Below, one piece after another: positions 1,824 to 43,020 of a stretch of 43,190 nucleotides of DNA. Location: the UHGV virus genome UHGV-0294267, one strand, 5' to 3'. This DNA is from a virus. Position numbers and translations under genes: made by a program. How positions within the stretch are numbered: the stretch's first letter is position 1; each line of letters starts with the position of its first letter. Under the pieces are notes generated by a model. That model saw only the letters and a list, made by a program, of their open reading frames with translations, was not told where the DNA came from and did no database searches.

Positions 1824-2384
1824 TCAGCGCACCTGCAGCGAACGTTCGCCAATCTCAAGGTGAGCGCCCGGCACTGGGTTTAACAGTTCTTCCGGTATCT
1901 CTCCGCCGTCAGCGGTAATCTGGGCCGCTGCTGCCTGTGCTGATTCAATCGCTTCCTTGATGGCCTTTTTATCGGGCGCGATAACAACCTGAGTAGTCAC
2001 CAGTTCATCGGGAAGAAGATCGGTATTATCAATCACAACGCTTATGCTACCTTTGCGAGCGGTGAAAGTGTTTTTTGCCGTTTTCAGCTTATCCAACCCG
2101 GCCGCCATCAGGCAGGAGAGAATATACTTTCGCAGAGCCTTATCCTTATTCTCAAAGGACTTCTTTCGTTCGGCCAGGCGTTTTATTTCATCATCGCAGG
2201 TGCTGGCATTGCCGAGGTTATTACGTGCGATAACCATGATGGAATCCAGTTTATCGGCCAGTTCTCCTTCCATGCCTTCAAGGGTATCGGCGATCATTTC
2301 CGGAGTCAGGTCATCAGAGCTTTCCAGCAGTTGCAGCAGGTTCTGATAATCCGCGGCGATGGCAATAGCAGTAGTGGAAGTCAT
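1824..2384 (-). CDS. Siphovirus Gp157-like protein
   Basis: 186 aa, acidic and alpha-helical. Its position between the annealing-protein gene and xis and my recollection of the Sipho_Gp157 family suggest the call. The ATG at 2384 overlaps the upstream gene's stop as TAATG. Confidence 0.45.
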   Translation of the reverse strand: MTSTTAIAIAADYQNLLQLLESSDDLTPEMIADTLEGMEGELADKLDSIMVIARNNLGNASTCDDEIKRLAERKKSFENKDKALRKYILSCLMAAGLDKLKTAKNTFTARKGSISVVIDNTDLLPDELVTTQVVIAPDKKAIKEAIESAQAAAAQITADGGEIPEELLNPVPGAHLEIGERSLQVR

Positions 2385-4543
2385 TATGCTTTCTCCTCAG
2401 ATTTATTAAGTTCGGCGATACGTCCATTTTTGATATCAGTGAGACGGCGCAACCGGCTACTGAGGTGGCGGGAGCGCTGTGTGTCTCCTTTTGATTCTGC
2501 ATCCTTGCGGTGAACTTCGAGTTCTCGGGCGATAGGGGCAAACACCTTGTTAATTTCGTTCACCGATACAGCGTTTGCGAGGGTATTGGCGTTGCGGGTT
2601 AGTTTGTCGTCGAACTCCTGACGCAACCGAGCTGCATCTTCGGCAGTTTCGCTGGCGTTCTTGAGGTCAAACTCTGCTTTGTTTTCTTGCGTATAATTAG
2701 CATTATCGTACCAGCCTAAATATACATCAGCAGAGAATCCGAGCATGGACAGGGCTTTTTTAATCGCATCTGTCAGGCTTTTTTTCAGTACCTCTCCATC
2801 GGAAACAATCCTTTTAGTAGCTTTGTATAGATAAGGTGTCGCGCCGTAAGCCTCAATAGACGATATGCCGTTTTCTGTGCGGTACCAGAAGTCGATTTTT
2901 ATAGAGTGATTTTGTTCATAAACAAGCGAACCATCTGCATCACGAAGAACAGTCATGCGTACGAACTTATCTTTTTCATAAATGGCCTCGGTCATTGGTG
3001 CGCCGGGGATCATTTTTTCCTCCATAACTTTATATCCCCAGCCTTTACCAGCTGGACCGAATATTTCCGTTGCTCGCATAAACATATATTCAGCGGTGAT
3101 TGTGGTAGCTTTGAAACCGCCAATATCAAGAGGTTTAGTGTACTGTGGGTCAGTTCGCATGACCCGGCGCCATATATCCAGATTGTCGCGCTCACTATCT
3201 GATTTCTGCTCAATGAATTTTTCTATTTCTACGGCGCGCTGTTGGAAATCATCTGACACGATTCGCTCGGCTAATTGTTCTGCATCACCTGCTATTTTTT
3301 CAGCCTTAACGCTTAACTTCTCTTCCGGTTCTGCATCCTCACCAGATGCATATACGCCATAGCCCATATCGTTGAGAGTTTCACGCGCCTGTTTCGCCTG
3401 GATATCTGTAACAACCGGCGGCGGCACTTCCGCTTTTTTGCCCACGTTTGAGGCGGTATTTTGAATCGCCTCTGGTTGTTTAACGGATCCTGTCTCGATT
3501 TCTTCAAAGCGGCCGTTTGCCTCCAGCCATGAATCGATGTGGCGCCGCAGGCTGTCAGGGAAATGGTAGGTATCTTTCGCCGGTACGTTCTGCACCACAC
3601 CGAAGATGCTGGCGCGGTCGTATTTGAGTATCTGCGGAGTGGTGTGCAGCGATGCTGACCAGCGTTTAAAATCTTCCCGGTCATCGGAAATCATCTTCTT
3701 AGCGTCCAGAAGGTTTCCGGATAGTACCGGCGCATCAGGCGCCAGCGGGAGAAGGGCGGTAGCGATCTCCTGATCCAGCGTTGCATAAGTGTGTTTATAC
3801 CCGCGCTTAGAAATAACCACCGGCGTTTTATTGTCATCGGTGCTGGTGCTGAGAGCGGTATTTTTATATACGCCGGGGGCCAGTTCGTCGCGCTTGCCCG
3901 GATTCTCAAGCCAGCGTTTAACGAACTGAGAGATAGCCGCTTTGCCTGGCGTCTGGTTTTCAAAGTGGGAGAAAATCCCCTGAACAAGGTTATTCAGACC
4001 TTCCACATGCATGCTTTGAACCGGGAAGTTATTTTGCAGGGCGCACAGCACATTAAAGTTAAAGCGTTCTTCCTCTTCAAATTCCCCATCGTGGTTTTTC
4101 AGGTTATCCAGATAATCCACAACCTGAGAATAAAGATGGCCGTCAATCGCCGCGGTGCTAAAAAGCAGGACGGCAGCAAAGCGTTCCTCTGCGGAAACGG
4201 TCATCAGGTCGATCACTTCATCGTCTGCAGGTAAACCTGCACTGCTTCCGGAAGCGCTATCCTGCGCAGTAGAAACCCATTTTTCACCGTCAAAAGTATG
4301 CTGCTGGGCGAATGACTCATCGAACTGGCCAACGGTCGGCAGCGGCTGGCCTTCAACGTGTTCCCAAAGTTTCGGTTTGAAATAGTTGTCACCATTGGCC
4401 GGGTATGATTCCCAGAGTTTGCCGGTCATAATGCTTTCGGCCACTTTTTTGTTTGGCGCATCGATGGCGATCGCCAGCTGCACGGCGCCGCAGTCTTTAA
4501 TCGCCGATTTCTTTGGCTCAAATAAGCCGTTGTAGATGGTCAT
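2384..4543 (-). CDS. 719-aa protein carrying a Rad52/Rad22-family single-strand annealing domain in its C-terminal third, fused to a roughly 470-aa N-terminal region of unknown function
   Basis: Residues from about 470 (FKATTITAEYMFMRATEIFGPAGKGWGYKV...SMLGFSADVYLGWYDN) resemble Rad52-type phage annealing proteins. The start was reassigned to the ATG at 4543 (MTIYNG...), which is preceded by GAGGAAAGACCA. The N-terminal 470 aa are unrecognised. Confidence 0.55.
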   Translation of the reverse strand: MTIYNGLFEPKKSAIKDCGAVQLAIAIDAPNKKVAESIMTGKLWESYPANGDNYFKPKLWEHVEGQPLPTVGQFDESFAQQHTFDGEKWVSTAQDSASGSSAGLPADDEVIDLMTVSAEERFAAVLLFSTAAIDGHLYSQVVDYLDNLKNHDGEFEEEERFNFNVLCALQNNFPVQSMHVEGLNNLVQGIFSHFENQTPGKAAISQFVKRWLENPGKRDELAPGVYKNTALSTSTDDNKTPVVISKRGYKHTYATLDQEIATALLPLAPDAPVLSGNLLDAKKMISDDREDFKRWSASLHTTPQILKYDRASIFGVVQNVPAKDTYHFPDSLRRHIDSWLEANGRFEEIETGSVKQPEAIQNTASNVGKKAEVPPPVVTDIQAKQARETLNDMGYGVYASGEDAEPEEKLSVKAEKIAGDAEQLAERIVSDDFQQRAVEIEKFIEQKSDSERDNLDIWRRVMRTDPQYTKPLDIGGFKATTITAEYMFMRATEIFGPAGKGWGYKVMEEKMIPGAPMTEAIYEKDKFVRMTVLRDADGSLVYEQNHSIKIDFWYRTENGISSIEAYGATPYLYKATKRIVSDGEVLKKSLTDAIKKALSMLGFSADVYLGWYDNANYTQENKAEFDLKNASETAEDAARLRQEFDDKLTRNANTLANAVSVNEINKVFAPIARELEVHRKDAESKGDTQRSRHLSSRLRRLTDIKNGRIAELNKSEEKA

Positions 4544-4587
4544 TGGTCTTTCCTCTTGGTTTCTGGCGCAGGTCACGCGCCGGTTAA

Positions 4588-4911
4588 TTAAAACGGTACG
4601 TCGCTTTCTTCAATCGGAGAGTGATCGATGCACAGCAGCTGCTGAATCTGGTCTTCAATAACACCCAATTCCTTCTTTGCTTCGGCAGAGATTTTCTCTT
4701 TCTTCGCGCGAAGGGCATTAACCTGCATACCAATAATGTCGATTGGCTCTAAAGCCGGAATAGGAACCTCTACCGTTTTGGTAGTAACGAGGACATACAG
4801 ATCAGGGTATTGCTGTGACATGTCACAGGTGAATGAGTGATAAGACGTTGGTAGATATGGGTTCGTTGTGGCCATAACGTAAACAGTTACGGGGATGGTA
4901 AGCGCTTCCAT
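4588..4911 (-). CDS. hypothetical early protein (107 aa) with an SSB-like C-terminal tail (..IEESDVPF)
   Basis: ATG at 4911 with an AAGGAG ribosome-binding site 6 nt upstream. It is the first gene of the leftward early operon. The C-terminus ends in an acidic stretch plus PF, like the protein-interaction tails of SSBs. Confidence 0.55.
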   Translation of the reverse strand: MEALTIPVTVYVMATTNPYLPTSYHSFTCDMSQQYPDLYVLVTTKTVEVPIPALEPIDIIGMQVNALRAKKEKISAEAKKELGVIEDQIQQLLCIDHSPIEESDVPF

Positions 4912-7086: not shown

Positions 7087-8070
7087 ATGAGTATGACGCT
7101 TATGGCCAAAGCAATGGCAATCAAGACCGGAAACCCGATTCGAAAACTGGTGCTGATCAAACTGGCTGATAACGCCAATGATTCCGGCGAATGCTGGCCG
7201 TCTTACAAACATATTGCGGATCACTGCGAGTGCAGCAAAAGCGCGGTGCGTGACCATATCGATGCGTTAATTTCTATGGGCCTGCTGGTGAAAGAAAACC
7301 GCCCGGGCGTAAAAAACGGGAAGGGTAACGCGTCGAATTTGTACTGTATGAAACTTGATAACCCTATGCCGCCAAAAAGCATAGCCCCTATGCCGTCAAA
7401 AAGCACAGGTATGCCGCCAAAAAGCATAGCCCCTATGCCGTGTGGCGGCACCAGAACCAGTCACTCTTTTGAACCAGTCATAGAACCTATAGATCCCCCT
7501 AACCCCCAGGAGGGGGAAGGCGATGAAAAAATTAATTCTGATGCTAAAAAAGCACTGGAATTTTACAACGAGCAAACCGGTACCCGCTGCCGTGACCTGA
7601 AACCGTTTGTGCTGATGCTGACGCCGACCACCACCCGGGCAGGATACACGCTGGACGAATTGCAGTTAGTTATCCGCTGGGTGCTGGCCACATGGCGCCG
7701 CCGTGGCGATAGCCTGCCGAAGCCTGCGAACATCTGCCGGGTAAACCGCTTTGATGGTTATCTCGCTGACGCTGAAGCATGGGCGGTGACCGAAACCGAT
7801 ATTGATCCGGAAGCCGTTATGAACGGCTACAACGAAATTTTTGCTGACGTTCTGCCTGCTGCTGAACTGGACACCGACCGGCGCCGGATGATCACCCGTC
7901 TTGCCGCCCACATGAAAAACAAAACCACGGGCGCATTTCTGGGTTATTTCGAAAAATTCCGCGCTGACGCCTCCGATTTTTACTTTGGTGAAAATGGCGG
8001 ATGGCGCGCCAGCTTTGACTATCTGATGAAACCAGAAACATTGCGTAAGACCAGGGAGGGCGCTCTATGA
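7087..8070 (+). CDS. replication initiation protein (lambda O-like), containing internal iterons
   Basis: 327 aa. The N-terminal replication-protein HTH region (KLVLIKLADNANDSGECWPSYKHIADHC...) resembles phage replisome-organizer proteins. It lies immediately upstream of the helicase gene, with an overlapping stop/start. Confidence 0.65.
   Translation: MSMTLMAKAMAIKTGNPIRKLVLIKLADNANDSGECWPSYKHIADHCECSKSAVRDHIDALISMGLLVKENRPGVKNGKGNASNLYCMKLDNPMPPKSIAPMPSKSTGMPPKSIAPMPCGGTRTSHSFEPVIEPIDPPNPQEGEGDEKINSDAKKALEFYNEQTGTRCRDLKPFVLMLTPTTTRAGYTLDELQLVIRWVLATWRRRGDSLPKPANICRVNRFDGYLADAEAWAVTETDIDPEAVMNGYNEIFADVLPAAELDTDRRRMITRLAAHMKNKTTGAFLGYFEKFRADASDFYFGENGGWRASFDYLMKPETLRKTREGAL
7364..7442. other. 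candidate origin of replication: four ~23-bp iterons, (C)TATGCCG(C/T)CAAAAAGCA(T/C)AG, inside the O-like gene, followed by an A/T-richer stretch
   Basis: Direct repeats at 7364, 7388, 7410 and 7433 (the last one partial). Each has CTATGC/GCATAG dyad ends. They encode the peptide repeats MPPKSIAPMP. Lambda ori has the same arrangement. Confidence 0.5.
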
Positions 8071-11154: not shown

Positions 11155-11439
11155 ATGGCCGACCAAACCATTCTCGATTTGAAAGACGCTCTACTTGAAA
11201 GCGCATACCGTCGATTATTGGAACTGGAGAAATTGCTATTGCCTGATGTCTCTGAAACCGTATGGCCCGTTGAAGTTAGCATGGTTTTTTCTCAGATAGA
11301 AAACGCCGGGGATCTCCCGGCGCACCACCAGCGCCGCCTGCAGCACCATATCAACCGGATGTGGCTGGAAAAAATGCCGGTACCGTCAATTATCGCCGCG
11401 GCTCGTTCGCTGGCCAGTGCCATGGAGAAATACGCGTGA
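11155..11439 (+). CDS. hypothetical protein (94 aa)
   Basis: ORF lying between the two methyltransferase genes. Its stop overlaps the GTG of the next gene (GTGA). Confidence 0.45.
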   Translation: MADQTILDLKDALLESAYRRLLELEKLLLPDVSETVWPVEVSMVFSQIENAGDLPAHHQRRLQHHINRMWLEKMPVPSIIAAARSLASAMEKYA

Positions 11440-13625
11440 GAGAGAGCGAAATCATCGTTGATAACTTTGCTGGTGGCGGCGGAGCCTCAACGGGCATCGA
11501 ATTGGCGATAGGGCGCAGTGTGGATATTGCGATTAACCATGACCCGAACGCTGTCGCGATGCACACTACTAATCACCCCGACACGCTGCATTACTGCGAG
11601 TCGGTTTATTCAGTTCGCCCGAAAGTTGCGACCGCCGGCCGCCGGGTTGGGCTGGCATGGTTTAGTCCTGATTGCCGCCACTTCTCAAAAGCTAAGGGTG
11701 CAAAACCCGTTGAAAAAGCGATTCGTGGGCTGGCGTGGGTAACACTTCGCTGGGGGCTGGATGTTGACCCTCGGGTAATGATGCTGGAAAACGTCGAAGA
11801 GTTTAAAACATGGGGGCCGCTGCTTGCGGCTGAAATGCGACCAGATCCAGACCGCGTCGGTGAAACATTCCGGGCATTTGTAGGCATGCTGACAACCGGT
11901 ATCCCGGCGAACCATCCGGCGCTGGCAGAATGCTGCGAATTTCTGAACATTTCGCTTGATAGCGAAGATGCCGCACGGCTGGTAAAAGGGCTGGGATACG
12001 TCGTTGAGTATCGAGAACTGCGCGCTTGCGACTACGGCGCACCGACGATTAGAAAACGATTCTTCATGGTCATGCGCCGCGACGGTAAGCCGATAGTATG
12101 GCCGGAAGCCACTCATGGCGATCCGAAATCACCATCGGTGCTGGCTGGCAAACTGGCACCGTGGCGTACAGCTGCGGAATGTATCGACTGGTCCATTCCC
12201 GCGCCATCGATATTTGACCGGAGAAAGCCGCTGGCGGTGAACACGCTCAAACGTATTGCCCGCGGCATCCAACGGTTCGTTATCGACAGTGCAGATCCGT
12301 TCATTGTGAAATGCAACCACACAACCACCCGTGGGAAATACGACTGTTTCCGGGGACAGGCGCTGGGGGATCCGCTGCAGACGATTACCAAAACCCACGG
12401 ATTTGGGCTGGCGGTACCGCATCTGACAAAATTCCGCACCGGTGCAACCGGGCAGCCAGTCACCGAGCCGGTACCAACAGTGACTGCTGGTACGTCAAAA
12501 CGCCCGGGCGGGAATGGTCACGCCCTCGGTATCGTTGAAGCTGAGCTGGCACCGTTCCTGGCCGGAAATGGCGGCAGCGAGTATCAGGCGAAGCCACGGC
12601 CACTGGATAAACCAGCACATACCATCCTGAAAGAGTCCCGCGCCTGTATGGTCACACCATACATTGCGAGGATTGGGCAGACGGGATTCGGCGGTGACCG
12701 TATGTCTTATGACGCAAAAAAACCTCTTACAACAGTTACAAGCAAAAATGAACATTTGTTACTGACACCAATCATTGCGCGCCAGTTTGGTGGCAGCATT
12801 GGCCACCGGGCGGACGAGCCCAGCGCGACGATCACCGCGGGCGGTGGCGGTAAATCGCAGCTGGTGGTGCCAACGTTGATTCAAACCGGATATAGCGAAA
12901 GGCCCGGGCAGGCTCCGCGTGTGCCTGGGCTTAATAAACCGCTGGGTACTGTAGTTGCTGGTGGCGGTAAACATGCGGTCGTTGGCGCATTTCTGGCGAA
13001 ACACTACGGCGGGAACTATTCGGGCCCAGGAGTAGGGTTGGACGAGCCAGCACACTCAGTGACTACGGTTGATCATCATGCGGTAGTTGCGGCGCATCTC
13101 ATGGTGAACAATACCGGGCATCCAGGCGGATCCGTTGAATCACCTGCGCATACGGTTACGACTGGCAATCACCACGCCGTTGTCGCCTCCCACCTGGTTA
13201 AGCTGCGCGGTACTTGCCGTGACGGACAGCGAACTGATGCGCCGATGCCGACTATTACCGCTGGTGGTCAGCACGTCGGGGAAGTTGATACCACTCTCGC
13301 TGTTGAGCATTACGACGAGCAGCGCGCGCAACAGGTGTTAGCATTCCTGAAAGAGTATTGCGGAGCCGATAGCACCGGGCTAGTGGAAATCGCCGGGGTA
13401 ACTTATCGCATCGTTGATATTGGCATGCGCATGCTGCAGCCGCACGAGCTTTACCGGGCGCAGGGCTTCCCTGAGTGGTACATCATTGACCAGGATTACC
13501 GCGGCGTGAAGTATGCGAAGGATAAGCAGGTCGCGCGATGTGGCAACGCTGTTCCGCCGCCGTTCGCGGAAGCACTGGTAAGGGCAAATCTGCCAGAAAT
13601 GTGCCAGGCACGGGAGGCCGCATAA
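11436..13625 (+). CDS. DNA (cytosine-5)-methyltransferase with a long repeat-containing variable region
   Basis: Motif I is DNFAGGGGASTG, motif IV is SPDCRHFS (PC motif) and motif VI is ENVEEF. The GTG at 11436 is preferred because it overlaps the upstream stop by 4 nt and places motif I at residues 8-16. The track's longer start is 11361. The variable region holds repeats such as PAHSVTTVDHHAVVAAHL, PAHTVTTGNHHAVVASHL, PLGTVVAGGGKHAVVGAFL and PSATITAGGGG. Confidence 0.8.
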   Translation: MRESEIIVDNFAGGGGASTGIELAIGRSVDIAINHDPNAVAMHTTNHPDTLHYCESVYSVRPKVATAGRRVGLAWFSPDCRHFSKAKGAKPVEKAIRGLAWVTLRWGLDVDPRVMMLENVEEFKTWGPLLAAEMRPDPDRVGETFRAFVGMLTTGIPANHPALAECCEFLNISLDSEDAARLVKGLGYVVEYRELRACDYGAPTIRKRFFMVMRRDGKPIVWPEATHGDPKSPSVLAGKLAPWRTAAECIDWSIPAPSIFDRRKPLAVNTLKRIARGIQRFVIDSADPFIVKCNHTTTRGKYDCFRGQALGDPLQTITKTHGFGLAVPHLTKFRTGATGQPVTEPVPTVTAGTSKRPGGNGHALGIVEAELAPFLAGNGGSEYQAKPRPLDKPAHTILKESRACMVTPYIARIGQTGFGGDRMSYDAKKPLTTVTSKNEHLLLTPIIARQFGGSIGHRADEPSATITAGGGGKSQLVVPTLIQTGYSERPGQAPRVPGLNKPLGTVVAGGGKHAVVGAFLAKHYGGNYSGPGVGLDEPAHSVTTVDHHAVVAAHLMVNNTGHPGGSVESPAHTVTTGNHHAVVASHLVKLRGTCRDGQRTDAPMPTITAGGQHVGEVDTTLAVEHYDEQRAQQVLAFLKEYCGADSTGLVEIAGVTYRIVDIGMRMLQPHELYRAQGFPEWYIIDQDYRGVKYAKDKQVARCGNAVPPPFAEALVRANLPEMCQAREAA

Positions 13626-37305: not shown

Positions 37306-37330
37306 GGCCGCATATTGCGGCCTTATTTTT
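37306..37330 (+). terminator. rho-independent terminator after the lysis cassette
   Basis: Hairpin GGCCGCA-TAT-TGCGGCC followed by TTATTTTT. It is near-identical to the element at 35430-35450. Confidence 0.7.
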
Positions 37331-37386: not shown

Positions 37387-40059
37387 ATGATGGTCGAGAA
37401 CGACACTTCATCGGTTGAGTATCAGCTATCAACCAGCACTGGCCCCTTTGATATCCCTTTCTACTTCATTGAAAACGGGCATATTGTCGCGGAACTGTAT
37501 ACGCAGAACGGTGACGATTTTAACAAAACCACGCTGACAGTTGACGTTGATTACTATCTAAATGGTGCTGGCGATAAGGATGGCGGTCAGCTAACTCTGC
37601 TATCAGCGCATAGTGGCGCGACGCTACTGATTTATCGTGATCCTGATGCGACGCAGTTAACCAGTTATCAGGCGACCGGTAAGTTTCCAGCGACAAGCCA
37701 CGAACGTGCGCTTGATAAGCTGACGATGCTTATCCAAAAATTTGGTTGGTGGTGGGATTCTTTGGCTCTGAAAAAGCCAAATATTTTCGCTAACTATTAT
37801 GACGCGCTCAACAACCGTATTCGTAATCTGCGTGATCCCTCACAGGCACAAGATGCGGCCACGAAGAACTATGTTGATTCAGCAGATAATGGTTTGCAGC
37901 AGCAGATAGCCAGCAACTTTAAACGCTCTCTGCGTGTTCCTGATTCCTCTATTAACCAGCTACCGTCGGCAGAAGAACGAGCCTGGAAGGGGTTGGGCTT
38001 TGATGGTGCCGGGCAGCCGAAACTGCAGGATCCTGCGGGAACTGGCTTATGGGGGTATGTTCCGGCAATTGGCTCGTTTGAAAAAGGTTCGCTACTCACT
38101 CAACGCTTTGAGGTTCTTCTGTGGGAATCCACGGATGAATACTGGCGCTGGGATGGGGCAATGCCGAAGATCGTTTTACCAGGTAGCACACCGGATACGG
38201 CTGGCGGACGGGGTAAAGGAAAGTGGCTGGATGTCACCGATGCGACTCTTCGTTCAAACCTGGGTTCAGGCGACGGAGCCAAACTCGTTGGTGGAATAGG
38301 ATTTGTCTCTCCGGAAATGTTCGGCTATTTACAGGGTGTCTCACCTGATGCGGTTCCGTACTATCAGGCTGCGGTCGATGAAGGCCACGCCAGAGGATTG
38401 CCCGTGAAACTCACGGGGAAATATTACGCCACAACCTTTCCCCACAAAGTCACGCTGCCCGGTGATGACGGAACCGCTTACCCAGGATGGGTGACTGCGG
38501 GGAATGATGCAAATATTGCCGCGGAATCTGAAAATCATATTTATGCGGCGATTCGACTTTATCCCGACTCCGTTATTATCGGCGACAGTATGCAGAATTG
38601 CGCGTTAATCGGAGACTGGGATTCGGATACGCCTGTGATTAACAATAACCAGCACATTGGTTATTTTATTTCCGGTGGCTCATCAGACGGATATATCCGC
38701 CCGCAGCTGGTTAATCACGGTGTGCGCAACTTCTTTATCGGTCGCTACGGGAATGGCGTTCTTGACCGGTCCACTGAAGATAATTTCCTCATCCGTGATT
38801 GCTGTCTGACGGGCTGGTTTATGGGGGCCGACTCCGTTTGCAATGGTTTCGTTGTCGCCCGTGATTGCTTTACCGGAGACGCCTATGGCGGGGCGTGGAC
38901 GCAACGAAATGCCGCGGTCACGATTCCGTATCTCCCACCCTATCCGGCGGCAGAGATTTTCAAAGTGGGCTGGGTTGATGCTATCCGGTATACGAAATAT
39001 CACTTTTACGGCAAGCCACGGCTGTTTGGTCCTGCAGATGAGGCGATTGATACCTGGTTCGATACGTATATCTATAAATCCGCCAACTCTGCGCGAACCT
39101 CCGCAGGCGGCAGGCTGACAAACAATACTGCCAGCGGCTATTCAGCGCGTTCGTTTCCCGGCATTGCGGGCCGGGCATTCACCGTTCTCAGTCGTTACGG
39201 CCGTGCGGTGAACGGGGTCTGCCTTGACGATGTGAAAGTGCTGGGGACCCACCGCGTCCCGTTCTACACCGACGCAGGCAGTTACAACGTGATTCACACG
39301 TCCTACGTTGAAAAGACCTGTCTCGTAGATACCACAACGACAACTATTGCCGGTAATCAGTTCTATACCGACTATCAGGACCCGTGGAATGCGACACTGA
39401 CAAAAGCGCCCGCGATGGTTTGTGAGGGTGGTATCACTGTCGACAGAGCTGTCGTTTCGGCTGGCGTGGCTACACATCCGTTCAGCCAGAAACCAACAAC
39501 CATCAACGGCCCGCTCATTATCAATCCGTTCCGTGATAATACAGAGGACTACACGGCCTCGCAGATTGCAGAGTGGAACAGCGCCGAAGGGAAAACGGTA
39601 TACCTCTATGACTGGCGCCGTCAGTACAGCGTCCAGCGCCCGATACGGTTTTTTGATAACACACAGGAAGCATTCCAGTATTACAAGGGTGTCTGGACGC
39701 CGGTTGTCAAATGCGGCTCGGAAGTCGTGACGCTGAATACCACCGTGGGAACCTACCGCCGCTCAGGGCGGTTAGTGCATGCGACTTTCAGAATCGAAAC
39801 CACGTCAATGGCACTGACGACAGGTGGCGCGGTAGTGATATCAGGGCTTCCGTTCACGGTTGCCGCACTGAGCGATGGGGGATTAACGGTGTCCCCGATA
39901 ATCTGCAGTCGTGCCGGTTCGGGGATCATCCTCGCGCAAACGAACCCGACCACAAAAGATATTTTGTTGCTGACAAATAGCTCGCCTGCCGCTCTCTCAA
40001 TAACGGGTGGAACCGGTTTAACTATTTACGGCTCAGTTCAGTACGTTCTGACAGAATAA
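37387..40059 (+). CDS. tailspike/tail fiber protein (890 aa), with a constant N-terminal ~290 aa and a variable beta-helix C-terminal part encoded inside the invertible segment
   Basis: The large protein has Gly/Asn/Thr-rich beta-helix-like repeats in its C-terminal 600 aa. A Hin/Gin-type crossover site lies at codon ~291 (..RSNLGSGDG..). Confidence 0.7.
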   Translation: MMVENDTSSVEYQLSTSTGPFDIPFYFIENGHIVAELYTQNGDDFNKTTLTVDVDYYLNGAGDKDGGQLTLLSAHSGATLLIYRDPDATQLTSYQATGKFPATSHERALDKLTMLIQKFGWWWDSLALKKPNIFANYYDALNNRIRNLRDPSQAQDAATKNYVDSADNGLQQQIASNFKRSLRVPDSSINQLPSAEERAWKGLGFDGAGQPKLQDPAGTGLWGYVPAIGSFEKGSLLTQRFEVLLWESTDEYWRWDGAMPKIVLPGSTPDTAGGRGKGKWLDVTDATLRSNLGSGDGAKLVGGIGFVSPEMFGYLQGVSPDAVPYYQAAVDEGHARGLPVKLTGKYYATTFPHKVTLPGDDGTAYPGWVTAGNDANIAAESENHIYAAIRLYPDSVIIGDSMQNCALIGDWDSDTPVINNNQHIGYFISGGSSDGYIRPQLVNHGVRNFFIGRYGNGVLDRSTEDNFLIRDCCLTGWFMGADSVCNGFVVARDCFTGDAYGGAWTQRNAAVTIPYLPPYPAAEIFKVGWVDAIRYTKYHFYGKPRLFGPADEAIDTWFDTYIYKSANSARTSAGGRLTNNTASGYSARSFPGIAGRAFTVLSRYGRAVNGVCLDDVKVLGTHRVPFYTDAGSYNVIHTSYVEKTCLVDTTTTTIAGNQFYTDYQDPWNATLTKAPAMVCEGGITVDRAVVSAGVATHPFSQKPTTINGPLIINPFRDNTEDYTASQIAEWNSAEGKTVYLYDWRRQYSVQRPIRFFDNTQEAFQYYKGVWTPVVKCGSEVVTLNTTVGTYRRSGRLVHATFRIETTSMALTTGGAVVISGLPFTVAALSDGGLTVSPIICSRAGSGIILAQTNPTTKDILLLTNSSPAALSITGGTGLTIYGSVQYVLTE
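38249..38274. other. left crossover site of the invertible segment (gix/hix-like 26 bp: TTCGTTCAAACC-TG-GGTTCAGGCGAC)
   Basis: It contains the AAACC-NN-GGTT core of Hin/Gin/Cin sites. A 13-bp block, AAACCTGGGTTCA, is repeated in inverted orientation at 42403-42428. Including flanks, 22 of 29 positions match. Confidence 0.6.
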
Positions 40060-40068
40060 GGATTTGCC

Positions 40069-40326
40069 ATGTTTACGATAGAGAAAGAAGTTGCGGTCAA
40101 TCAGGTAACTGCCGATGGCATTTCAGTCGGAACCACAGCATTAAAAGTCACCCTGACATATACCATCGAGAGGATTGAGCTTGAAGGTGAGAACGGTATC
40201 GCTTTTTACACTGTTACGTCTGGCGCTGATACTGAGGGTGCGAGGAACTACATCCCATTCACCTATTCAGGAAGTGGCGATCCGCTGTCTGAGGCCGAGG
40301 AAGCGCTAAAGTTAAGAGTTAAATGA
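40069..40326 (+). CDS. small protein (85 aa) following the expressed tailspike variant, a possible assembly/accessory protein
   Basis: ORF 10 nt after the tailspike stop. No recognised domain. Confidence 0.4.
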   Translation: MFTIEKEVAVNQVTADGISVGTTALKVTLTYTIERIELEGENGIAFYTVTSGADTEGARNYIPFTYSGSGDPLSEAEEALKLRVK

Positions 40327-40331
40327 CATAC

Positions 40332-40366
40332 CCCGCCGGTAATGGCGGGATTGATTTATATTTTTG
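40332..40366 (+). terminator. candidate terminator between the convergent halves of the invertible segment
   Basis: Hairpin CCCGCC-GGTAAT-GGCGGG followed by a T-rich stretch (ATTGATTTATATTTTT). Confidence 0.3.
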
Positions 40367-40458
40367 CAGCCCCGGAAAACTCATCCAGACCCATGATTTG
40401 CGCTTGCGCCTGGCTGAAGATATCCCCACTCAGCCAGGTTATCGGGAATGAGCGCGCA

Positions 40459-40746
40459 TTATTTGACCCATTTTATACCATTGAAGATCATACCTTCTGG
40501 TTCATCGCCAGGGGGCACAGTAGTCGTATTCGCAAATACGAGATATTTAGGCTCAACCGAGTACCGGTAGCCAATCCACACCGCCCTCTCATCATCCCCG
40601 ACAGCTGGCGGAGACGGTGGATTGCCATCTGCATCGTAATAACCTTTGTCGATGGGTTCATCGGGGAAATTAAACACAGGATTGATTACAGGCTCTATTT
40701 CACCGAGATATAGCCCGTTTTCGTCGTATCGATAAAGCGTGGTCAT
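40459..40746 (-). CDS. small protein (95 aa) following the alternative cassette, a tail fiber assembly/chaperone-like candidate
   Basis: Its ATG lies 1 nt after the alternative cassette's stop on the minus strand. It occupies the position that tfa/U' genes hold in invertible fiber segments. Similarity to Tfa proteins is weak. Confidence 0.35.
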   Translation of the reverse strand: MTTLYRYDENGLYLGEIEPVINPVFNFPDEPIDKGYYDADGNPPSPPAVGDDERAVWIGYRYSVEPKYLVFANTTTVPPGDEPEGMIFNGIKWVK

Positions 40747-42424
40747 TTAAATCGCCTTTTTGAATTCACATAAAATGAAGTTTGCCAGTGCCACACCCGA
40801 TGAGTTACGAACCTCAAACATGTAGTAGCTGCCGTCTTTCGCAATCGGGCGGACGATCAGATCCTGATTCATTGCCTGTGCAACAATTTCCGGCCTGTAA
40901 AATGTGGATTCAAAGGGCGTGGTAAAATTAATCCTGTATCTGCCATCAGAAACAAGCTCTACTGAGCAGTTAACAACACCCTGCAATGAAATAGACCCGC
41001 TTACAGTTTGACCGAAAGAACATGCAGCATATGCATCCCTTAAAGCATTTAGATTTCTTGGCCTGTTTCTTGGTATGTATCCATTGCAAACTGTAGCAGG
41101 GTCAACACGACCAGTAGGGGTCTCATCATTGAAAAGGCCATAGTAAGATGTTGTACTGCCGCCGACATAAACGCCAGTTGCATTGTAATTTGAACATCCG
41201 TTTATGCGCCCGTTTCCTCCGTTGGCTGCTGCAAAAAGGCCGGCTCCGTTATTATAGCAGTTGCCATTGAGTGTAAAGTTGGCGCAGTTCAGAACCTGAA
41301 CTCCCCACCCCTGAGAGCTTAAAGAGCGGGGCGATGCATCAAAGTAGCTGCAATTCGTTATGTTCCAGCCGTCAAAAGCTGCGGCCTGACTGACGCCCAT
41401 ACCAGATGCTCTCATGTTCTGGGCACCGTTAATATAGACCCCGTGAGACTGAGTTGAAACGACATCTACATCAGACACGCTTACTCGCGTCAGTTTTTTA
41501 CCTGATATGAAAACACCATGTGAATAGCCCGTTCCTTTGACATTTTGAATCGTTACTCCTGTGACGTTTGTGGCGTCATTAATCCCCTGTACGCGCACGA
41601 CGTCACGGACGACATTCCCGGATTTAATCGTGACACCATCAACCAGAATATCTACGGTTGAAAAGGTTGTGGCTCCCTCCTCATTGAAGATAACGCCAGA
41701 TGCGAGCATGGAATAGCCAATGACGTTTCGTATCACGGCATTCCTCTGATCTCGCGTCTCAGTCGTGCACCCAACCATATCGTCACCAGACTCAATGTCA
41801 GCGCCATTTAGTGTAAAATTCACGCAATCAAGGAAATGAATACCGTCCCGGCCACCGTATAGCGTGCCACCGCTTTTTCTGTGCCGATAATTAACCACGC
41901 TCACGTCTGTACATTTTTCGAATGAAGTAGCCCAGTCGCCGGTACGACTTACCTCACAGTTAATCATCCTTATATCAGTGCAATTAATAAACCGTACTCC
42001 ACGGATAGCCCGCTTTGACGTCACACCGGCGTTACAGCCACCTTCTATTACCAAATCCCGCAGAACAATATCAGACGCACCTGTAGTTCTGAGCACGGTA
42101 AGCATTTCCGCCCCACTTGCCGAAACCGCATCCGGAGATGACAAAATACAGTTCGGCCCAAGGCCGATAAGCCTGGTGCCAGAGATAAGGGAAACGGTCG
42201 ATTTTAAATAATGCTTTCCTGGTGGGATCAGAACATGCGGAGAAACAGACAGCGCTTTGTTCAGTGCCGGAGCATAATCAGTGCCATCGGTCGGGGACCA
42301 GTAATCATGCAGGCTAACAAAATCACGTAACCTGGCCGCGACTGTTCTGGCTACAGCAGAATCACCGGCAAGATAGGCAATCAGCCACGCTCCCTGGCCC
42401 TCTTCGCTTGAACCCAGGTTTACG
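40747..42424 (-). CDS. promoterless alternative tailspike C-terminal cassette (~559 aa) on the minus strand; expressed only after inversion
   Basis: An open frame with no stop runs on the minus strand from 42441 down to the stop at 40747, with no ATG near its 5' end. The track's M at 42144 is a TTG inside the frame. The sequence is typical of pectate-lyase-type beta-helix depolymerases (VLRDLVIEGG, NCTDIRMINCEVSRTGDW, repeated N/G/T-rich rungs). Its 5' end (..VRVNLGSSEEG..) coincides with the right gix-like site. Confidence 0.6.
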
Positions 42425-42428
42425 CGAA
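42403..42428. other. right crossover site of the invertible segment (inverted copy: TTCGCGTAAACC-TG-GGTTCAAGCGAA on the minus strand)
   Basis: It is the reverse complement of plus-strand 42403-42428. It shares the 13-bp core AAACCTGGGTTCA with the site at 38249-38274 and lies about 45 bp upstream of the invertase gene. Confidence 0.6.
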
Positions 42429-42471
42429 CAATCCCGGCAATTTACAATCAGCTATTTCAAAGGGTTGCATA

Positions 42472-43020
42472 ATGCTGATTGGCTACGCGCGGGTGTCTAC
42501 CGGCGATCAAAACCTCGATTTACAGAAAAACGCGCTGGTTCGCGCAGAATGTGAACTAATTTTCGAAGACACCGCCAGCGGTAAGAATGCTAAAAGGCCT
42601 GGATTACGGAAAGCGATCCGCCGTCTTCGGCCTGGTGATTCGCTGGTGGTCTGGAAACTGGATCGCCTCGGTCGCAGTGTCCGTGACCTCATAACGTTGG
42701 TATCTGAATTACAGGAGAGGGGAATTCATTTTCGCAGCTTGACCGACTCGATCGATACTTCGACACCTGCCGGCCGATTCTTCTTTCATGTCATGAGCGC
42801 GTTAGCTGAAATGGAGCGCGAATTGATAGTGGAGCGTACCCGCGCCGGTTTAGCAGCGGCGAGAGAGCAGGGCCGCATCGGTGGCCGCCGCCGGATAATG
42901 ACCACCGAAGTTGTGGAGCGTTGCCGGCGCATGCTGGAGAACGGCGCAACCCGGCAGCAGGTAGCAGATGTGATCGGGGTAGGGGTGAAAACGATTTATA
43001 AATATTTCCCTATAGGTTAA
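42472..43020 (+). CDS. serine recombinase, DNA invertase of the Hin/Gin/Cin/Pin family
   Basis: 182 aa. The N-terminus MLIGYARVSTGDQNLDLQKNAL...VVWKLDRLGRS...FRSLTDSIDTSTPAGRFFFHVMSALAEMERELIVERT is near-identical in pattern to Gin and Hin. A C-terminal HTH is present. Confidence 0.9.
   Translation: MLIGYARVSTGDQNLDLQKNALVRAECELIFEDTASGKNAKRPGLRKAIRRLRPGDSLVVWKLDRLGRSVRDLITLVSELQERGIHFRSLTDSIDTSTPAGRFFFHVMSALAEMERELIVERTRAGLAAAREQGRIGGRRRIMTTEVVERCRRMLENGATRQQVADVIGVGVKTIYKYFPIG

Follow-up and report, generated by a model that had tools for sequence, protein, structure and literature searches.

A predicted Gin/Hin-type inversion switch for the C-terminal domain of a tailspike in a Klebsiella oxytoca-complex prophage

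We analyzed the tailspike locus of the virus genome UHGV-0294267, a stretch of 43,190 nucleotides here referred to as the window. Between positions 37387 and 43020 it carries a large tailspike gene, a long open frame on the opposite strand, two inverted copies of a 26-bp sequence and a gene for a DNA invertase. An initial annotation, made from the sequence alone, had proposed that these elements form a switch, and its factual statements were confirmed to within a few bases. Based on the analysis described below it is highly probable that the locus is a Gin/Hin-type inversion switch by which a temperate podovirus-type prophage replaces the C-terminal two-thirds of its tailspike, the part predicted to bind the receptor and to degrade polysaccharides.

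The tailspike open reading frame (ORF; 37387-40059, plus strand) encodes 890 amino acids (aa) and can be separated into two parts. Codons 1-290 (37387..38256, plus strand) represent the constant N-terminal part with the particle-binding region; phrog_6518 and phrog_1640 cover residues 1-303. A Tail_spike_N domain (PF18668, 1.4e-11) was located at residues 229-285, directly before the putative crossover, while the match to the N-terminal domain of the T7 tail fibre (PF03906) was weak (21.2 bits, below the cutoff). This N-terminal part was 92-94% identical in other switch loci. The variable C-terminal part of 600 aa (38257..40059, plus strand; phrog_22560, tail protein), here named cassette 1 (C1), is the one currently expressed. 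Residues 291-876 of the tailspike were homologous to the PDB entries 9M4C/9M4D, described as 'capsule KN1-specific depolymerase' (E 6.5e-87). Hence C1 resembles a depolymerase-type receptor-binding domain and is predicted to be one.

The left 26-bp site, TTCGTTCAAACC-TG-GGTTCAGGCGAC, is located at 38249-38274 (plus strand) within the tailspike coding sequence, where it encodes ..R-S-N-L-G-S-G-D... Its central TG is found at 38261-38262, and codon 291 (AAC) begins at 38257, so that the gene is interrupted at the codon named in the initial annotation. The inverted copy was likewise present at the predicted position, 42403-42428. Read on the minus strand, this right site has the sequence TTCGCGTAAACC-TG-GGTTCAAGCGAA and encodes ..R-V-N-L-G-S-S.. 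in the same phase as the left site. Both sites agree at 21 of 26 positions and share an identical 15-bp core (AAACCTGGGTTCA+) as well as the central TG. They form the top and longest inverted repeat of the region (38244-38273 paired with 42404-42433). Furthermore, the 20-nt pattern TTCGNNNAAACCTGGGTTCA occurred exactly twice in the window when up to two mismatches were allowed, with an expectation of 0.00 (no match in 100 shuffles). The sites have a 12-2-12 anatomy, that is two imperfect 12-bp half-sites around a 2-bp core, and stand in inverted orientation. Aligned with gixR of phage Mu, 17 of 26 positions matched, which bears out their description as gix/hix-like.

The right site heads an alternative cassette that has neither a start codon nor a promoter. 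This cassette 2 (C2; 40747..42420, minus strand) consists of 557 codons and a stop and is the variable C-terminal part that is currently silent. The complete open frame on the minus strand comprises 564 codons (42441..40750), namely seven codons followed by NLGSS and the remainder; it is preceded by a stop at 42442-42444, seven codons upstream of NLGS. The frame had been reported with 559 codons, so its existence stands while its length is 564 codons in total or 557 counted from NLGSS. The claim that it lacks a start codon was correct: there is no ATG, GTG or TTG within the first 99 codons, and the first in-frame candidate is a TTG at codon 100.

No sequence relative of C2 was found in the PDB. 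An AlphaFold (AF2) model based on 22 homologues showed a long right-handed parallel beta-helix with a mean pLDDT of 75.8. Foldseek matched this model to the tailspikes of Pam1, Sf6, phi297, HK620 and CBA120 as well as to polygalacturonases, with E values down to 2e-10. C2 thus models as a beta-helix tailspike domain. The beta-helix assignment of the initial annotation holds, but the term 'pectate-lyase-type' is better replaced by a right-handed parallel beta-helix of the tailspike or GH28-like type. The structural comparison that had been suggested for both C-terminal domains led to a capsule depolymerase for C1 and to phage tailspikes for the C2 model.

In other genomes the C2 domain (97-100% identity) is part of full-length proteins whose N-terminal parts differ from that of the window, and the junction N-L-x-S-S is preserved in them. 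In the related prophages L002 and L003, which have the same order of internal virion protein genes, a C2-type domain belongs to the sole and non-invertible tailspike and is followed by a 94-aa ORF. Between the silent C2 of the window and an expressed homologue in locus L130 the ratio of nonsynonymous to synonymous substitution rates (dN/dS) was 0.17, a value indicating that C2 is under purifying selection.

The segment between the two central dinucleotides (38263..42414) is 4,152 bp in size. Its inversion in silico created an uninterrupted ORF of 847 aa with the junction ...TLRSNLG|SSEEGQG..., and neither a stop codon nor a frameshift was present at the predicted junction. The proposed alignment of ..VNLGSS.. 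with ..SNLGSG.. at the crossover was therefore correct in phase.

The invertase gene (42472..43020, plus strand) encodes a serine DNA invertase of the Gin/Hin family with 182 aa and the catalytic Ser9. Its ATG follows the end of the right site after 43 bp; the position upstream of the gene had been described correctly, with a distance of 45 bp. The protein comprises a Resolvase catalytic domain (PF00239, 1.4e-49) and a C-terminal HTH_7 domain (PF02796, 2.6e-08) and belongs to phrog_125, 'DNA invertase' in PHROG (1.9e-85). It could be aligned to the Mu Gin structures 4M6F and 3UJ3 over residues 1-180 (E 2.9e-71), with an identity of roughly 70% as judged by eye from the printed alignment. Ser9 is in place. 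The protein is a close relative of Gin, and its designation as a textbook Gin/Hin/Pin invertase holds. In Hin, basic residues of helix B contact the enhancer DNA and an R/L pair contacts Fis (PMC3798978). The basic helix-B residues R46, K47 and R50 are kept in the invertase of the window, and the counterparts of Hin R154/L155 are R/M.

Evidence for inversion came from natural sister prophages. An exact look-up of the invertase protein yielded ten chromosomal loci (L126-L135), seven of which lie at one chromosomal site adjoining a DHDPS-family gene. The loci L127, L129, L131, L132, L133 and L135 carry the 290-aa N-terminal part of the window together with another cassette pair of 598 and 571 aa. 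This sister prophage shares with the window an invertase of identical amino acid sequence, the N-terminal part and the chromosomal integration site. In L129, L132, L133 and L135 the 598-aa domain is expressed and the 571-aa domain silent; in L131 the reverse was found. Each of the two domains is 100% identical between both orientation states.

L131 and L132 originate from different Klebsiella oxytoca-complex assemblies. A single mismatch distinguishes their left flanks (5,016 bp compared) and another one their right flanks (9,618 bp; 99.98-99.99% identity). The intervening 3,953-bp segment is inverted without any sequence difference (100% identity). Both loci retain the outer half-sites of the window, TTCGTTCAAACC to the left and TTCGCGTAAACC to the right, and it is the inner half-sites GGTTCAAGCGAA and GGTTCAAACGAA that trade places between the two loci. 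This half-site exchange fits cleavage at the central dinucleotide exactly. A search of related prophages for the flipped orientation had been recommended in the initial annotation; the comparison of L131 with L132 and L129 delivered a clean inversion.

Both expressed proteins of the sister prophage are present in public records, namely K. oxytoca KONIH1 (8 contigs) and K. oxytoca AI2828V5 (4 contigs), where the tailspikes are annotated as 'hypothetical protein'. Additionally, in locus L130 of K. grimontii the N-terminal part of the window is joined to a 91% homologue of C2; the expressed protein has 847 aa, and the ORF after its gene encodes 95 aa. By its sequence this protein is the predicted fusion in natural form. 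Inverted pairs were also found in other prophage types: the flanks of L042 and L044 are 99.9% identical and their 4.2-kb segment is 99.6% identical but inverted, and L048 is inverted relative to L050 and L114. Hence the in-frame fusion, its natural counterpart in L130 and the flipped sister prophages all support the claim that inversion joins the constant N-terminal part to the other C-terminal domain.

A deviating arrangement was observed in L127 (GCA_902164835.1, 4535-8957), which carries three sites. Here, the tailspike is cut to a C-terminal stub of 90 aa, followed on the opposite strand by a 100-aa resolvase fragment, after which a second copy of the right-type site heads the complete cassette of 598 aa. 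The arrangement resembles the outcome of an aberrant recombination or duplication in the switch.

To determine how far the switch is distributed we scanned the viral contigs of IMG/VR with the pattern TTCGNNNAAACCTGGGTTCARNMGA. At least 120 contigs matched, and all counts for the family given here refer to the matches listed. A switch was regarded as complete when a site within a full-length gene was accompanied by an inverted site with a stop exactly seven codons upstream and by an invertase gene about 45 bp beyond. At least 20 complete switches were present among the 120 listed contigs, which shows the module to be common. Another 22 of these contigs carried a partial switch, which was either located at the end of a contig or had a second site that matched less strictly. 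In every complete switch the invertase was 84-100% identical and located about 45 bp from the silent site, and every silent copy of the family had the stop exactly seven codons upstream.

The N-terminal parts fell into length classes of 157-165, 183-198, 224, 239-246 and 290 aa. Since the 161-aa class is found behind lambda-like minor tail genes, it belongs to siphovirus-type prophages, and the switches are thus present on both podovirus- and siphovirus-type prophages. The C-terminal domains formed about 60 clusters, nearly every one of them followed by a small ORF of 45-130 aa. The type of the small ORF co-varied with the cluster of the C-terminal domain, which indicates that the cassette is a two-gene unit, like Sv-U in Mu.

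In a collection with one genome for each of 185,579 species the site pattern was restricted to Klebsiella and Raoultella, save two tiny contigs and one chance match. The two contigs are L138 (Halomonas, 390 nt) and L146 (a Saccharibacteria metagenome-assembled genome, 2.5 kb), the latter also with a 93% identical invertase. Both most likely represent assembly contamination. Another locus of 13 kb, L028, contains two convergent full-length tailspike genes (at 4650 and 8626) with N-terminal parts of 165 and 183 aa, each with a site. No invertase was seen on this locus, which could be a precursor or a decayed switch.

For enzymes of the Gin/Hin type it is established that dimers bind to the sites and synapse on a Fis-bound enhancer, that a staggered cut is made at the 2-bp core and that one pair of subunits rotates by 180 degrees before religation (PMC3798978, PMC3575834). 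Applied to the window, invertase dimers would bind to both sites and form a synapse, probably together with host Fis on an enhancer in the 5' part of the invertase gene. Cleavage at the central dinucleotide, rotation and religation would then invert the segment 38263-42414. In the present orientation the late transcript would encode the N-terminal part (1-290) with C1, an 890-aa protein with a relative among the capsule depolymerases, and next to it the 85-aa ORF. The inverted segment would instead yield the N-terminal part (1-290) with C2, a protein of 847 aa with a different beta-helix, and the 95-aa ORF as the downstream gene. A population of lysogens would release two kinds of virions with different predicted specificities for surface polysaccharides.

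The putative enhancer was located by conservation. Among 32 family members the pairwise synonymous differences were approximately 0.1 in codons 1-30 of the invertase gene and approximately 0.45 elsewhere, which is about four-fold higher. In the family alignment the DNA was nearly invariant from the right site to about position +84 of the gene, that is up to ~146 bp from the centre of the site. The candidate recombinational enhancer accordingly spans 42472..42561 (plus strand), ~56 to ~146 bp from the centre of the right site, and a Fis-dependent enhancer within the 5' end of the invertase gene is suggested by this pattern. However, a recent spread of the switch module could also explain the conservation of the 5' end.

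Several results weigh against an active switch in the window itself. All records of the C1/C2 pair, namely the window, L134 and L126 (the last standing for eight more similar places), show one orientation. The flipped hybrid junction was absent from the viral, genome and metagenome collections in a pattern search, the reciprocal junction pattern was found in a single contig (L136) with a different cassette, and the three exact in-silico fusion proteins were absent from a collection of 15 billion proteins. Furthermore, two positions in the inner half-site on the left (GGTTCAGGCGAC) are changed relative to the sister prophage, which has demonstrably flipped, and no convincing Fis-like pair with a spacing of 47-48 bp (G-N13-C 15-mers with an A/T-rich centre) was detected in the conserved stretch. 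The orientation data and the two changes in the site would be expected if the switch is a genuine one of the Gin type by descent, but its copy in the window is locked or flips rarely, with C1 as the only tailspike and C2 as a stored remnant. We consider this unlikely. The invertase gene of the window is undamaged, and exactly the same protein (100% identity) is encoded by the sister prophage, which is known in both states. Outer half-sites and 15-bp core do not differ from those of the active sites, and C2 has remained open over 564 codons under purifying selection. Additionally, the records with the same orientation are probably clonal (L134 is 99.4% identical to the window over 9.7 kb), and an assembly reports only the majority orientation.

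Two other explanations dispense with the invertase. The breakpoints of the natural inversions lie within a stretch of 19-31 bp identity, which would fit homologous recombination by RecA between short inverted repeats, with the adjacent invertase being irrelevant, just as well as site-specific inversion. Repeats of this length are, however, very poor substrates for RecA; the repeat has the 12-2-12 anatomy of gix and hix, a closely related invertase accompanies the silent site in every complete switch among the matches listed, and inversion of this kind has occurred independently in more than one lineage of prophages. Thus, a RecA-driven inversion is very improbable. It might also be argued that the locus consists of two independent convergent tail genes which merely share a coding motif (..NLGS..) next to an unrelated recombinase gene, since the 26-bp sequence is found at the same junction in tailspike genes lacking an invertase, including that of a lytic Drulisvirus, and since a 465-aa ORF with a TTG start is present inside C2. 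This candidate gene was rejected: the 99 startless codons in front of the TTG are conserved as protein in full-length homologues, and the 465-aa product would be without the particle-binding part. Together with the fixed position of the stop seven codons upstream of the motif in all listed silent copies and the existence of flipped pairs, this leaves two independent genes as the least credible explanation, to which we give practically no weight.

The proposed inversion switch has the same gene order as the G segment of phage Mu with its invertase Gin, as annotated in AF083977 (S/U-U'/S'-gin): a constant N-terminal part, an intragenic site, a variable C-terminal part with a small gene, an inverted second pair, a second site and the invertase, which lies within about 45-70 bp of the second site in Mu and likewise in the window. 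Both systems share the 26-bp site with its 12-2-12 anatomy and related invertases. They differ in the central dinucleotide, which is GA in Mu and TG here, and in the structures that are exchanged. Mu swaps the slender tips of the fibres of a contractile tail, whereas in the window beta-helix domains of the depolymerase-type tailspike with ~560-600 aa would be swapped in a temperate phage with a T7-like tail. Moreover, the fibre tips of Mu need the assembly chaperones U/U', while the linked small ORFs of the window match no Pfam assembly family.

The C segment of P1 with Cin, the P segment of e14 with Pin and the fibre loci of P2-like phages use the same enzyme family and the same host-range logic of C-terminal exchange, and inversion of prophage tail fibres has been treated as a general phenomenon of the Mu/P1 kind (PMC5903667; bioRxiv 10.1101/2024.10.15.618418). 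The described cases are fibres of myoviruses or remnants; in the literature we found no case with a tailspike or a depolymerase. Salmonella Hin is likewise a serine invertase acting on 26-bp sites (hix), with a Fis-dependent enhancer of 65 bp located ~100 bp from hixL (PMC3798978). Hin inverts a promoter and thereby turns genes on or off; in the window a coding segment would be exchanged instead, and the enhancer is a predicted one.

The Klebsiella phage KPP5665-2 (MF695815; L004), a siphovirus by electron microscopy, carries an invertase with 90% identity alongside an inverted pair of large tail genes. Its sites are of a variant type, TTCGCTCAAACC-CT-CGTTTGGGCGAA (AAACC-CT-CGTTT), at 1473-1498 and 7963-7988, approximately 22 bp upstream of the starts of GP20 and the inverted GP22, with a ribosome-binding site and an ATG inside a 46-bp repeat. 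This looks like a swap of whole genes behind a fixed promoter and not like a C-terminal swap. The genome paper of KPP5665-2 makes no mention of a switch.

More than one receptor specificity can also be reached from one genome by other means, as known for Bordetella phage BPP-1 and for phages with multiple tailspikes. The diversity-generating retroelement of BPP-1 acts by mutagenic retrohoming, and the lytic phages K1-5, PhiK64-1 and CBA120 display several spikes at once, without a reversible inversion.

In the searched literature no description was found of an invertase or inversion in connection with tailspikes, depolymerases or Klebsiella. Large recent studies of receptor-binding proteins of Klebsiella phages, both of temperate phages and of the phages of this species generally, mention neither inversion nor recombinases. 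In one preprint an inversion of roughly 5 kb adjoining an invertase was recorded for a K. pneumoniae prophage, but no interpretation was offered. This is in agreement with the initial annotation, in which the combination was regarded as not well characterised. The mechanism is the textbook one of inversion, applied to a different class of phage proteins and without prior description in the searched literature.

Which phages are able to infect a given Klebsiella is largely a matter of its capsule type. By switching reversibly between depolymerase-type domains, a single prophage would gain two specificities. At the same time half of its receptor-binding repertoire would be hidden in a cassette which gene callers shorten or annotate as 'hypothetical'. 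According to a 2026 study, in which inversion is not mentioned, depolymerases appear to be unexpectedly rare in the genomes of Klebsiella prophages (PMC13123978), and silent cassettes are one concrete possible contribution to this apparent rarity. In practice, the switch bears on the prediction of prophage host range, on the engineering of receptor-binding proteins at a natural junction and on the reading of assemblies that differ only by an inversion.

The 26-bp site is not limited to loci with an invertase. It is kept at the nucleotide level in many tailspike genes lacking one, where it encodes the ..R-x-N-L-G-S.. linker after Tail_spike_N. In the strictly lytic Drulisvirus vB_Kpl_K71PH129C1 (OY978777, Autographiviridae; L149) the exact site TTCGCGCAAACCTGGGTTCAAGCGAA is located near position 2770 at the same domain junction of the tail-spike gene, and the homology to the tailspike of the window ends exactly at this site. 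In KpV17Sklif (L150) the site is present as well, except for one change in the AAACCTGGGTT core. The mosaicism of Klebsiella receptor-binding proteins is well known. Because the site is kept in the absence of an invertase and homology breaks off at the site, the invertase may also mediate the capture of cassettes. We tentatively suggest, as a possibility more doubtful than probable, that the site is a universal module boundary at which the invertase may capture and exchange depolymerase cassettes across temperate and lytic Klebsiella phages of different morphotypes. If so, the invertase would be a driver of this mosaicism, and the startless cassettes labelled 'hypothetical' or 'partial' would represent the hidden half of the depolymerase repertoire of prophages.

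Each of the two cassettes is followed by its own small ORF, as had been pointed out in the initial annotation. The 85-aa ORF linked to C1 (40069..40326, plus strand) belongs to phrog_7836, a family of unknown function, and has only close Klebsiella homologues, all of them named hypothetical. For the 95-aa ORF linked to C2 (40459..40746, minus strand) neither Pfam nor PHROG gave a family. The C2-type tailspike genes of L002/L003 and L130 also have an ORF of 94 or 95 aa directly 3' of them, the correspondence being one of length and position alone. For the small linked ORFs no Pfam family was obtained at E<=0.01, tail-fibre-assembly families included. In phage BUCT708 the equivalent of the cassette-linked small ORF is annotated as DUF2829.

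Putative signals for transcription were located at three positions. A promoter-like element (TTTACG, 18 nt, TACAAT; 42419..42448, plus strand) matches the consensus, overlaps the right site and is a candidate promoter of the invertase gene; its TACAAT is invariant in 33 family members. In the centre of the segment, directly 3' of the 85-aa ORF, a terminator-like hairpin with a T-run was found by consensus match (40332..40349, plus strand). Another terminator-like hairpin, a strong one (GGCCGCATATTGCGGCC followed by a T-run), is located at 37306-37322, after a 75-aa ORF without a family and 65 bp upstream of the start of the tailspike gene. In view of this hairpin, expression of the tailspike may require its own promoter or antitermination. 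The numbers of matches in promoter and terminator scans of the region were not above chance, and these elements are candidates only.

Outside of the switch, the window encodes an integrase, a large terminase, a portal-type adaptor and a major head protein, as well as T7-type tail tubular proteins A and B and large internal virion proteins, one of them with a transglycosylase region. The T7-like virion module matched phrog_332, phrog_394, phrog_376, phrog_1044 and phrog_684. With a T7-type portal, tail tubular proteins and internal virion proteins present, the classification as a podovirus-type prophage with T7-like internal virion proteins was upheld. The host group of the prophage is the Klebsiella oxytoca complex.

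When E. coli genomes and a phage collection were searched with the tailspike and the cassettes, only BUCT708/709 and short stretches of a few Klebsiella phages were obtained, the other matches being to the invertase gene alone. The only deposited phages resembling the window are OM816834 ('Stenotrophomonas phage vB_SmeS_BUCT708'; L001) and OM816835, with approximately 87% identity over 18 kb. Both are labelled as siphoviruses of Stenotrophomonas, yet they carry T7-type tail genes and the same switch. Since the site pattern is otherwise confined to Klebsiella and Raoultella, the host or morphotype label of BUCT708/709 may be wrong. Deposited relatives are annotated as 'hypothetical protein' and 'recombinase family protein'. 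Further genes of the window include one for a 754-aa DNA methyltransferase fusion (11361-13625) and one for a 730-aa exonuclease-family protein (2384-4576).

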